From assembly GCA_937948815.1 (NCBI GenBank), contig CALFAM010000308.1:5817-69816 (forward strand): a stretch of 64,000 bases of DNA, written 5' to 3'. The DNA is from an uncultured bacterium. Lineage in GTDB: Bacteria; Acidobacteriota; Thermoanaerobaculia; Multivoradales; J023. Below are positions 39,760-46,800 of this stretch, piece by piece. The notes under the pieces are model-generated. The model saw only the letters and a program-made list of their open reading frames with translations, was not told the origin of the DNA and did no database searches. Position 1 is the stretch's first letter, and each line of letters starts with the position of its first letter. The position numbers and the translations under genes are program-made.

Positions 39760-40064
39760 AGCGGCCGGATGATATCCCACCGTGGCACTCGCCTGGCCGG
39801 ATTCGCGGCGCGATGCACGCGGCCTCTCGGCGCGGTGCCGACGACTATGATGCGCCCACACGGTGCGACCCAGAACGCCCGCTTGGCCGGTACCGTGCGT
39901 TGCGAGCAACGGGTACACTCCCCACCGCGGGCACCGGCGCCGGCAGAGCGTTCCAGCCCTCGCCATGGTGGACGCTCCGAGCCCACCGCCTCGACGATCT
40001 TGTCCGCGCGCGACATCTTGGCGACCTACCCATAGACCCGTACCCAACCACCGTGAGCCCAGGC

Positions 40065-41366
40065 ATGACCCGCCGAAACCTTGGCAGAACCGACCGCGTG
40101 CTGCTTTTGCTGCTCCTCGCGCTCCACATTCTCCCGTTCGCATCGCGGCCGGCTCTGATCGGCGGCGACGAGGTGCACTATGCGCTGATGGCGAGCTCCA
40201 TGGGTATCGACGGCGACCTCTCGCTCGAAGCAGACTACGAGCGGGTGGCGGCGGGCTCGCCGGCAGCAGGCCGCAAGCATGCCGGGCAGGAGCTCGACCG
40301 GCACCTGATCGAGGTCGGCGACCGGAAGGTCTTCGCCCATCCTCTGGGCCTGCCGGCGGCCGCGGCACCCTGGATCCACATCCAGCATCGGATCGCCCCG
40401 GGTGCCGCACCGGATCTACTCCTCGCACTCCTGAGCCTCAGCGTTACCGGGCTGGCCCTGGTCGCCGCCTACCGAACCCTCGGCGGGATCTCCGGCGCCC
40501 GGCCCGGGACGGCTTTGGCCACCGTTCTTCTGATCTACTTCTCGACTCCGCTGTGGTTCTACAGCCGGACCTTCTTCACCGAGCCGTTCCTGGGTTCGAT
40601 GGCCGTGCTTGCCGGTTGCGCCCTGGTGACCGGTCGCTGGCGAACCGCGTCGTTCCTGCTCGGCGCGCTTTTCCTGCTCAAGGAAACCGCCGTCTTGCTG
40701 ATCCTTCCGCTGCTCGCGTTCACCTTGCATCGCTTCGGATTCCGGCGTGCGGCGTGTCTGTCGATCGGTCCGGTCGTCGCCTTTGCTCTGTTCTGCGCCA
40801 AGAACGCCTACGTATACGGAACACCCTTGACCACCTTCCAGCCGTTCCGGTCCGGATCGTTGCTGGACGGCCTCGTGGGTCTCGCCATCGACCCGAGCAA
40901 CGGTGTCCTCTTTTTCGCGCCGACGCTTCTCGTCGCCAGCCTCGGCTGGATTCGCGGTGCACCGCGGGATGCCGGCCTCACGCTCGCGCTTCGCTACGCG
41001 CTCTTGGCGGTCGTCGCTTGGGTGACGATGACGGCACTATGGGTGGACTGGACGGGTGGCTCCTCCTACGGCCCCCGCTTGCTGGTCCCGATCATGCCCC
41101 TCTTCGGGCTGCCCCTCTTCTCGCTCCTGCAATCGGCCACACCCGGAATGCGGCGGCTGGTCTTCGGCGCCGGGGTCGCCGGCTTTCTGGTCAGCTTCTG
41201 CGCGGCGATCGATCCCTTCCACGCTTTCTGGTCGACTCCGGTGCACACGATCGTGATCGAGCACCCGCTCGGACTGTTGCTCGGGCTGATCACCATCGGC
41301 TTCGTCTGCCGACGCCTGCAGACTAGGATCCATGCGCAGCCTGGCGCCGTACAGGTAGAACGTTGA
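40065..41366 (+). CDS. Polytopic GT-C-fold-like membrane glycosyltransferase
   Basis: GDEVHY…S…DGDL loop after TM1, STPLWFYS…FTE, W.GG.SYGPR.L.P; about 10 TM segments; start uncertain. Confidence 0.6.
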   Translation: MTRRNLGRTDRVLLLLLLALHILPFASRPALIGGDEVHYALMASSMGIDGDLSLEADYERVAAGSPAAGRKHAGQELDRHLIEVGDRKVFAHPLGLPAAAAPWIHIQHRIAPGAAPDLLLALLSLSVTGLALVAAYRTLGGISGARPGTALATVLLIYFSTPLWFYSRTFFTEPFLGSMAVLAGCALVTGRWRTASFLLGALFLLKETAVLLILPLLAFTLHRFGFRRAACLSIGPVVAFALFCAKNAYVYGTPLTTFQPFRSGSLLDGLVGLAIDPSNGVLFFAPTLLVASLGWIRGAPRDAGLTLALRYALLAVVAWVTMTALWVDWTGGSSYGPRLLVPIMPLFGLPLFSLLQSATPGMRRLVFGAGVAGFLVSFCAAIDPFHAFWSTPVHTIVIEHPLGLLLGLITIGFVCRRLQTRIHAQPGAVQVER

Positions 41367-41406
41367 GGGTGCCCAACGCCCTCCCCATCTCCGAGGAGAC
41401 CGAGCC

Positions 41407-42837
41407 GTGGCATGCGACCCGCTCCGTTCGTCCAACGTCCGCTCGCTTCGCTCGACCGTGCTGGCCTGTGGCCTCGCGCTCACGCTGGCAGCGGGTCTCG
41501 TGGCTGACGACATGTCGATCAAAGTAGACGAGCCTTTCCCCAATCTCGTGCTCCGCACCCTGGACGGCGAGCTGAAGACGATCAGCGACTTTCGCGGTAC
41601 GAAAGTCGTCCTGCACGTCTTCGCCTCCTGGTGAGCGGGCTGTCGAGTACACGTGCCCGGGTGGCACGACGCGACAGCAGCCTTGCAGCGCGCCGGAAAG
41701 GTGCAGATGGTCGGCATCATTCAGGAGCAGAATCCCGATCGCTGCCGGCTATTCATGCAGTGGCAGCAGATGGACTGGCCGATCCTGGTCGACACCTTCG
41801 ACCTGCTCGAGGTGAGCGTGGTGCCCCTGACCTACGCCATCGACGAGCACGGCATCGTGCGCCGCGCAGGCCTGCGCCTCGGGGACGCCGAGTCCATTGA
41901 GGAGACCTTCCTCGACAAGACCTGGCCGGCACCGGGCCAAGACGGTGAAGCGCCAGCGGGCGACCTGACAGTGGCCACCCGCCAGCTGCGGGCCCTTGCC
42001 GCCCAGGCGACCTCGGGAGCCCCCGACGACATCGGCCAGGCGCTCGATGCCTATGAGCGCCTGGTGCGCGATCAGCCCGACAATGGCTGGGCGCACTTCC
42101 GTCTGGCCGCGGCCTACCGCCTGCGCTACGACTCGACCGGCCGGCAACCCGAGGACTTTCAGCGCGCGGTCGACCACTGGCCACGAGCCCTCGAGATCGA
42201 CCCCAACAACGACATCTGGCGCCGCCGCATCCAGCAATACGGCCCGCGGCTGACCAAGCCCTATCCGTTCTACGACTGGATTCCGGCGGCACGGGAAGAG
42301 ATCCTCGCGCGCGGCGAAACGCCTGTGTCGCTCACCGCCGAGCCCACCGGCGCCGAGATCGCCAGCCCCAGCCGCGACTTCGACGCCGCCGTCAGCACGG
42401 TCGCGTCACCAGATCCCGAAGGACGCGTCTATCGCGACCGGGCCGAAGGCGACACCCGAGCCCTGATTCAGGCCGAGATCACCACCGTGCCGAACGTCGT
42501 CGCCCCCGGCGCCGCCACCCGCGCCCACCTGGTATTTCGCCCCAACGAAGGCCGGCTCGCGCACTGGAACAACGAGACCGAGCCGCTCCGCGTGTGGGTC
42601 GAGCCTCCGCCTGGCTGGCATCTCGACCACCAGCTCCTCACGACGCCCAACCACGAGCAGCCGACCAGCAACGAGACCCGGAGCCTCGAGCTCGAGATCA
42701 AGGTGCCGGAGCAGGCCGTCAGCGGGCCGGTCGACGTTCCGGCCTACGCCCTCTACTACGTCTGCGAAGACGAGAACGGCACCTGCCTCTACCGGCGCCA
42801 AGACCTCACCATTCGCGTCGACGTCCGCGGGCCCTAG
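41407..42837 (+). CDS. Selenoprotein (Sec76, UxxC): exported TlpA/AhpC-TSA-type redoxin + TPR-like + DsbD-N-like domain, 476 aa
   Basis: ORFs 41407-41634 and 41653-42837 are in the same frame, separated only by TGA 41632-41634, giving HVFASW-U-AGC; SECIS-like hairpin follows; SD GAGGAG 41393-41398. Confidence 0.85.
41639..41678 (+). promoter_or_regulatory. Bacterial SECIS-like element
   Basis: Lower stem GCTGTCG/CGACAGC, upper stem CGTGCC/GGCACG, apical loop CGGGT starting 23 nt after the UGA. Confidence 0.75.

Positions 42838-44175: not shown

Positions 44176-46796
<2,621 letters not shown>

Positions 46797-46800
<4 letters not shown>

Follow-up and report, generated by a model that had tools for sequence, protein, structure and literature searches.

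Introduction

The thioredoxin-fold proteins ResA, CcmG (DsbE), TlpA and StoA are Cys-based and single-domain, with defined clients (cytochrome c maturation, Cu-A/Sco). In the DsbD pathway, DsbD-alpha passes electrons between thioredoxin-fold partners. Thioredoxin-fold selenoproteins with a UxxC motif, where U is selenocysteine (Sec), are also well known, and in bacterial genes the selenocysteine insertion sequence (SECIS) elements sit just 3′ of the UGA. In the portions drawn on here, reviews of prokaryotic selenoproteomes class such proteins by domain and motif (PMC13188914, PMC9312934, PMC12013277). One class so listed, the 'Prx-like thiol:disulfide oxidoreductase' (Prx, peroxiredoxin), has the domain PF00578 and the motif UxxC or UxxU (PMC13188914, table 1; PMC9312934). 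Here we describe a gene at 41407-42837 (+ strand) of a 64,000-nucleotide stretch of DNA, called the window, from an uncultured acidobacterium of the order Multivoradales (GenBank assembly GCA_937948815.1, contig CALFAM010000308.1, positions 5,817 to 69,816). Two annotated fragments at this place are one gene for a selenocysteine-containing, exported-looking thiol-disulfide reductase.

A gene divided by a selenocysteine codon

An earlier note on this DNA had pointed to two same-frame open reading frames (ORFs) joined by one TGA, to a UGA replacing the first Cys of a W-C-x-x-C redoxin motif, and to a hidden, exported-looking selenoprotein as the product. These three points stand; overall the observation is confirmed and the interpretation is partly supported. 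The ORFs occupy 41407-41634 (75 codons, GTG start) and 41653-42837 (394 codons) and are parted only by the TGA at 41632-41634. A Shine-Dalgarno-like GAGGAG can be read from the sequence at 41393-41398, 8 nucleotides (nt) ahead of the GTG. When the TGA is read through, the complete gene has 476 codons followed by the stop TAG at 42835-42837, and its single protein of 476 residues contains ...KVVLHVFASW-U-AGC-RVHVPGWH..., with Sec as residue 76.

The genome of the window, 81.75% complete in 371 contigs, was found to contain all four components of the Sec machinery for which the note had advised a search. The genes selA (530 bits), selB (359 bits) and selD (358 bits) score above their curated cut-offs, as does tRNA-Sec (67 bits), which ARAGORN also calls as SeC with the anticodon tca. 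On the minus strand selA, and on the plus strand tRNA-Sec and selD, are clustered at G000:C153:46509-49361, and selB is on contig C367. The selD gene has an in-frame TGA of its own (...TCG-U-AAKL...) and so is likewise a selenoprotein gene. A second redoxin selenoprotein candidate lies in the same genome at G000:C180:3607-4011 (minus strand); it is AhpC/TSA-like and reads ...VLVFFRGAW-U-PFC-RTQLGEL... across one in-frame TGA.

Orthologues were sought by a read-through search of 60 related genomes. Full-length forms were found in nine, all of them among the 23 genomes of the same family and none among the 37 from other families of the order. Identity between these orthologues and the gene is 49-56%, and each has exactly one in-frame TGA. 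In the alignment of the gene with these nine, the ASW-U-AGC column holds TGA in all ten sequences, and coding conservation extends on either side of it.

A wider sample, with one genome per species and the post-TGA ORF as query, yielded 365 relatives among approximately 186,000 species genomes. The best 80 of these 365 belong to Acidobacteriota (Thermoanaerobaculia, Bryobacterales, Vicinamibacterales, Blastocatellia and others), Gemmatimonadota, Planctomycetota and Verrucomicrobiota. One of the 80 is from a record that does not carry the label of a metagenome-assembled genome. TGA stands in the same column at 78 of the 80 loci, and the remaining two are unreadable there, one ending at a contig edge and the other being out of frame. 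The note had expected homologues with Cys or UGA at this site; TGA is what they have, and no Cys form was seen at any of the 78 readable loci or among the best 150 of 810 cluster representatives from a 50%-identity protein library. At the level of the superfamily Sec does align with Cys, W-U-x-x-C on W-C-x-x-C, and the site lies within the matches to the ResA and TlpA models. That no Cys orthologue appears in this sample is notable. Two relatives, L161 from a Gemmatimonadales genome and the protein P0238, do not keep the reading frame near the Sec site; these are probably assembly indel errors, neither Cys forms nor true full-length calls.

An assembly error at the TGA, with TGC or TGT in the reads, was a further possibility raised in the note. 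TGA is unchanged in all nine metagenome contigs that cross it, which come from three public runs (1, 5 and 3 contigs). The run with a single contig covers 85% of the window and is possibly the source sample; the other two are different samples of the same study. Among the public sequencing runs listed for the window there is no RNA run. Short contigs of relatives in the latter two samples align only to 41605-41676, which contains the TGA and the hairpin discussed below. This is the most nucleotide-conserved portion of the gene.

The SECIS-type hairpin

Bacterial SECIS loops follow a rule of suitable distance from the UGA. In this gene a conserved SECIS-type hairpin lies at 41652-41668, with a stem of 6 base pairs (bp), CGTGCC/GGCACG, and the apical loop CGGGT at 41658-41662. 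With 41632 counted as position 1, the stem is 21-26/32-37 (41652-41657/41663-41668) and the loop is 27-31. The earlier note had described a two-tier hairpin at 41639-41678 with the loop CGGGT, beginning 23 nt downstream of the TGA. That structure is present in the minimum-energy fold of the window sequence, its outer tier being 41639-41645/41672-41678, but only the upper tier, 41652-41668, is conserved. It is the apical loop that begins 23 nt after the TGA, and the foot of the two-tier hairpin is 4 nt after it.

The stem-loop is invariant in the ten aligned orthologue sequences. The closing pair is present in 68 of 83 distinct sequences from the four phyla and the other five stem pairs in 82-83, and the changes that occur in the stem are of the G-U wobble type. 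The loop is CGGGU in 70 sequences, GGUCU in four, CGUGU in three, AGGUU in three, GGGCU in two and AGGCU in one, with G28 and U31 invariant in all 83. Codon usage tells the same region apart. In codons 82-87 the codon itself is invariant in all five invariant degenerate columns of the ten-sequence alignment, compared to 4 of 107 elsewhere (Fisher p = 9.4e-7). The pairs of the outer tier, in contrast, form in only 12-37 of the 83 sequences, save two pairs of near-invariant bases, and this tier is specific to the window sequence and a few relatives.

Several results weigh against the hairpin as a SECIS element. By folding energy it is not beyond chance (z = -1.36, with 20 of 200 shuffles as good), and a permissive Rfam search of 41400-41900 gave no match. 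The stem varies so little that no compensatory change is seen in it among the 83 sequences. RNAalifold, run on the ten sequences, gave an alternative fold; this was rejected, having no covariation term and a pair, 6-27, that holds in 43 of the 83. The support for the hairpin is comparative.

Between the TGA and the hairpin there is possibly a mini-helix of 3 bp (41641-41651), which makes use of the Cys79 codon, pairs 41641-41643 with 41649-41651 and abuts the main hairpin. No two columns of the region covary more strongly than column 12, the third base of the Cys79 codon, and column 18; the counts are CG 37, TA 20, CA 14, CT 7 and CC 5, and T12 occurs with A18 in 20 of 20. The family tree requires at least 12 changes at column 12, and its supported branches provide only seven independent pairs. 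Column 18 follows in about 4.9 of the seven and does the opposite in none (median sign-test p = 0.06, in a control that rests on a quick tree). These counts are suggestive of a helix 10-12/18-20 stacked on the hairpin.

Could the TGA be a true stop after all, parting two genes or marking a pseudogene or an assembly error? Its 75-residue product would break off halfway through the active-site motif of the redoxin, and the identical column holds TGA in 88 independent assemblies of four phyla, with no TGC or TGT and no other stop. Standard gene calling does yield two ORFs, all public records are truncated and the hairpin lacks significance by folding energy, as a true stop would have it. Against these stand the coding conservation that crosses the TGA, the frozen synonymous sites just downstream, the complete Sec machinery in the genome and the unchanged TGA in 9/9 contigs. 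A true stop is hardly credible on this evidence, and the gene almost certainly encodes a genuine selenoprotein. Its SECIS, near base-perfect across phyla, offers a clean natural data set on the requirements of SelB.

Annotation and extent of the family

The note had foreseen that standard pipelines would split or truncate the gene, and this is borne out by the ORF calls and by the public records. The codon GTG for Val83 (41653-41655), which falls inside the hairpin, is used as a start by gene callers throughout the family; it is a false start, at which the 394-residue ORF of the window begins. Public relatives restart at this GTG and begin MPGWH.... In a collection of 5.8 billion proteins the best 120 matches are all 370-421 amino acids long and cover 78-83% of the query, which corresponds to the post-TGA piece, and they are named 'hypothetical protein' or 'TPR repeat protein' (TPR, tetratricopeptide repeat). 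The 50%-identity library gave 810 matches, with 343 clusters at E <= 1e-30. All 120 best matches in the large collection are truncated, as are about 149 of the best 150 of the 810, almost all of which begin at the first residues of the query. P0238, with 488 amino acids apparently full-length, was rejected as a frameshifted chimera. A search for longer proteins with the N-terminal 75 residues returned one match, of 155 amino acids, itself a fragment ending ...HVFASW.

The family is not modelled in NCBIfam release 20.0, where the best match, NF041054, falls below its cut-off. The family is widespread and systematically mis-annotated: it is common, yet among the records examined the public calls ('hypothetical' or 'TPR repeat') miss the active site. 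With such records, too few selenoproteins are counted in the selenoproteomes of Acidobacteriota, Gemmatimonadota, Planctomycetota and Verrucomicrobiota. A dedicated family model would correct hundreds of records.

The redoxin centre and the helical region

The structure of the protein was modelled at full length from an alignment of 122 sequences (predicted local distance difference test, pLDDT, 90.5; predicted template modelling score, pTM, 0.88). A model built on ten sequences was of low quality (pLDDT 65.5), and the 122-sequence model was used instead. In it a thioredoxin fold is followed by six helices (residues 189-301), then by an extended linker and a beta-sandwich of eight strands (354-473). 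The signal-like N-terminal segment, the TPR-like region and the sequence YYVCEDENGTC that the earlier note had listed are all present as described.

Residues 1-33 (41407-41505) resemble a signal peptide on inspection and by comparison with orthologues, being basic, then hydrophobic and ending ...LVA/DD. In all ten orthologue sequences a plausible start codon is followed by an N-terminus of this kind, first basic and then hydrophobic, and the model has pLDDT <50 at residues 1-31. Once the signal is cleaved, as we infer it to be, an exported selenoprotein of approximately 440 residues would remain.

The thioredoxin-fold redoxin domain comprises residues 40-153 (41524-41865), with U76-A-G-C79 and the invariant P140 in a VVPxT loop. 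The domain scores above the Pfam cut-offs for AhpC-TSA (PF00578; 44.1 bits, cut-off 26) and Redoxin (PF08534; 35.1 bits, cut-off 26.6). Its top matches in the PDB, by Foldseek, are ResA, CcmG/DsbE, TlpA, StoA and Etrx2, at template modelling (TM) scores for the target of 0.70-0.82, a root-mean-square deviation (rmsd) of 2.2-3.0 Å and 20-28% identity. A helix begins at residue 77 in the model, directly after the active-site Sec. In the 122-sequence alignment P140, at the predicted cis-Pro position, is invariant, as are C453 and C460 of the C-terminal domain. U76 and C79 are invariant in the ten full-length rows; most of the other 112 rows begin past both.

These features suggest that the protein is, very probably, an extracytoplasmic reductase. 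Alternatively the Sec redoxin could be mainly of the peroxidase type, an envelope antioxidant in which peroxide converts Sec to selenenic acid, Cys79 resolves it and the C-terminal dithiol recycles the centre. The top Pfam family, AhpC/TSA, would agree with this. So would the classing of UxxC PF00578 selenoproteins as 'Prx-like' in the reviews, as far as drawn on here, and a review passage in which Sec is favoured in peroxide-reducing enzymes. The fold neighbours ResA, CcmG, TlpA and StoA are reductases, however, and the first alkyl hydroperoxide reductase comes at rank 48; NCBIfam likewise places the ResA, StoA and TlpA models above thiol peroxidase. The motif W-U-x-x-C also differs from the peroxiredoxin motif T-x-x-C/U given in the relevant part of the review. 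A role mainly as a peroxidase is improbable, and a reductase is the reading followed here.

The central region, residues 189-301 (41971-42309), is TPR-like, as the note had proposed. In the window protein TPR_11 matches at E = 6e-6 with 26.3 bits, just under the cut-off of 26.8, together with weaker TPR matches, and many homologues carry precomputed matches to TPR_11, TPR_1 and TPR_2. The six paired helices are modelled at pLDDT 93-98. At the end of the helical region the motif IWRRRIQQYGPRLxKPYPFYDW (residues 270-291, 42214-42279) is invariant or near-invariant in the 122 sequences.

The C-terminal domain and DsbD-alpha

Beyond the helices Pfam has no match over residues 300-476. Residues ~350-476 (42454-42834) are modelled as a beta-sandwich of eight strands at pLDDT 85-98, of which the last two are 440-454 and 459-473. 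In the turn between these two lies a Cys pair, Cys453 (TGC 42763-42765) and Cys460 (TGC 42784-42786), and both are invariant in 122/122 sequences. The earlier note had read a DsbD-alpha-like domain here with a CX5C pair; the spacing is in fact CX6C.

The likeness to DsbD-alpha was examined with hhalign, in which a 122-sequence profile of the domain was compared with a profile of 22 true DsbD_N domains. The probability was 94.1% (P = 1.3e-7) over 116 columns, and in the alignment AHWNNE falls on GWHVNS, while the two Cys of CX6C coincide with those of DsbD_N. A reversed template gave 0.2% and 30 column-shuffled templates at most 0.9%. When the Cys hairpin was removed from both profiles the probability was still 84.1%, with shuffles at most 0.4%, and the hairpin alone gave 2.9%.

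A number of other findings count against the assignment. The Pfam model PF11412 (cut-off 25 bits) left the gene unmatched at E <= 1 in a six-frame search of its own genome, and none of the ten members matches it at E <= 10; the same model finds true DsbD_N domains in 35 of the 41 genomes searched and never this gene. A sequence-profile search of the PDB with the C-terminal domain gave a chance match only (FlaF, E = 0.27), and a reciprocal hidden Markov model (HMM) search of its own genome returned the gene itself alone. Foldseek, which ranks matches to a whole model, returned matches to the redoxin domain with both whole-protein models. The Cys spacing is CX6C, compared to CX3C or CX4C in the true DsbD_N domains of the lineage. 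Weak Pfam matches go to NPCBM_assoc, an Ig-like (immunoglobulin-like) family, in 5 of the 10 members, with a best E = 6e-4. Neither these nor the DUF matches, the only others in Pfam, were accepted.

The claim of a DsbD-alpha-like domain therefore holds by profile-profile comparison as a remote relationship to DsbD_N, and the PF11412, PDB-profile and reciprocal HMM searches fail to recover it. Homology to DsbD-alpha is probable, and we conclude that the domain would be a remote homologue outside the Pfam family as it is defined.

The sandwich of a real exported Sec redoxin could also have no part in a relay. Its Cys pair would then be a structural disulfide stapling the last hairpin, and the C-terminal domain and the TPR-like part would bind a substrate or an envelope component, like the sandwich of DipZ. 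The unmatched Pfam DsbD_N model, the weak matches to the generic Ig-like NPCBM_assoc and a Cys spacing unlike that of true DsbD_N would all be expected of such a protein. The C-terminal domains of DipZ (5cyy), a thioredoxin domain and a beta-sandwich, do appear in the Foldseek list, at rank 42. The profile-profile likeness to DsbD_N (94% across 116 columns, and still 84% once the Cys motif is taken out) speaks for a relative of DsbD-alpha instead, as does the alignment of the Cys pairs onto each other. The invariance of both Cys in 122/122 is equally expected of a structural disulfide and does not discriminate. We regard this reading as rather unlikely.

The genome of the window encodes two ordinary DsbD_N-bearing proteins at other loci. 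True DsbD_N domains of the lineage (L048-L078) show two motif types, ...YQACDDxxCLPP (CX4C) and ...VCExxCIP (CX3C). They occupy open frames of 190 to 2004 residues, and the alpha domain thus occurs in many architectures in the lineage.

A proposed mechanism

In the mechanism we propose, the UGA at 41632-41634 would be decoded as Sec during translation by SelB and tRNA-Sec, recruited by the conserved hairpin at 41652-41668 with its G/U-containing loop 23 nt past the UGA. Sec would then stand at the attacking position of W-U-x-x-C in an extracytoplasmic redoxin of the ResA/CcmG/TlpA type. A rigid TPR-like part would connect this redoxin to the C-terminal Ig-like domain, whose Cys pair would sit at the place of the DsbD-alpha catalytic hairpin. 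Such a protein may be a two-centre thiol/selenol-disulfide reductase of the cell envelope, in which the DsbD-alpha-like dithiol and the Sec-Cys centre would swap electrons within the molecule. One of the centres might be recharged by a membrane reductase of the DsbD/CcdA type encoded elsewhere in the genome, and the two DsbD_N proteins mentioned above could supply electrons. The Sec centre would reduce oxidised envelope substrates, which may be disulfides, sulfenic acids or peroxides, and the helical part would serve as a scaffold, perhaps also as a docking surface.

Intramolecular exchange is suggested by the part that DsbD-alpha plays in the DsbD pathway. The chance that the explanation holds as a whole, relay included, appears about even, and for the intramolecular relay itself we would put it a little lower. 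The earlier note had called the protein a self-contained redox device. This is open to doubt, since a polypeptide that lacks a membrane domain has to draw its reducing power from another source. It is a point against the relay that no membrane partner is encoded near the gene. It is another that none of its neighbouring genes is conserved beside orthologues, which share neighbours within one genus only.

In its strongest form the proposal would be of a soluble, obligately selenium-dependent two-centre envelope relay, a portable, membrane-free counterpart of the periplasmic half of DsbD that, unlike nearly all known selenoproteins, has no Cys orthologues, in a family that has reached at least four phyla while its SECIS stayed almost the same. 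This is speculative and on balance unlikely. If it were true, the absence of Cys orthologues would imply a reaction in which sulfur cannot substitute. Soluble and exported, the protein would unite the two kinds of domain between which electrons pass in the DsbD pathway, and would carry selenium at its reactive position. A real relay would make it a compact system in which to study why Sec is retained where Cys usually suffices.

Neighbouring genes

Around the gene in the window lie a biotin carboxylase and an alpha/beta hydrolase, together with a membrane ORF and a TPR-bearing Ser/Thr kinase. The membrane ORF, just upstream at 39813-41363 (+ strand), is very hydrophobic and looks like a multi-pass membrane protein; it has no Pfam family at E <= 1e-5 and is not conserved beside orthologues. 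The kinase, at 44179-46800 (minus strand), has 874 residues, with a long array of TPRs at its C-terminal end (Pkinase 151.6 bits, TPR_12 124.9 bits).

Comparison with known systems

No description of a selenoprotein with this architecture was found in the literature searched. The 2026 review contains no occurrence of TPR or tetratricopeptide, and the part of its table 1 drawn on here lists no such architecture (PMC13188914). The window protein would be filed in its Prx-like class, with which it shares the Pfam domain and the UxxC motif with Sec first. As presented there, that class is a domain-level catalogue entry. Entries listed as 'Redoxin family protein' or 'Thiol-disulfide isomerase-like protein' could belong to the family.

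Among named families the nearest is NF041054 (WAxxUGC_long), the best NCBIfam match, at E = 3.9e-18 over residues 44-274, that is, the redoxin and the helical part. It is likewise a selenoprotein family with an active-site Sec, and a helical region HFxLA...W..RRQ is common to both. With 65.9 bits (61.4 on DNA) against a cut-off of 300 the window protein is not a member; true members score 480-498. These have approximately 355 amino acids and the motif W-A-P-Y-U-G-C, one residue fewer between U and C than in the (F/W)-A-S-W-U-A-G-C of the window family. They have another N-terminal domain, no signal-like segment and no C-terminal beta-sandwich. Four true members (L042-L045, in genomes G030, G040, G058 and G049) have one TGA each and start MILT....

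ResA, CcmG (DsbE), TlpA and StoA are the nearest solved folds, with a motif of the W-C-x-x-C type, and are exported or membrane-anchored. The window protein differs from them in having Sec for the first Cys and two more domains fused to the redoxin. With DsbD alpha (PF11412) it would share an Ig-like beta-sandwich and a Cys pair on the terminal hairpin. Its order is redoxin, helical part and alpha-like domain, without the membrane beta domain, whereas that of DsbD is alpha, membrane, gamma. The C-terminal domains of DipZ belong to a membrane protein. They too (5cyy) place a thioredoxin-like domain before a beta-sandwich in one chain, but they align badly with the window protein (rmsd 20 Å over 466 columns, 13% identity), and DipZ has neither Sec nor a helical linker. 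Set beside these systems, the protein described here belongs with the well-known UxxC thioredoxin-fold selenoproteins, of which it is a variant with a new architecture.

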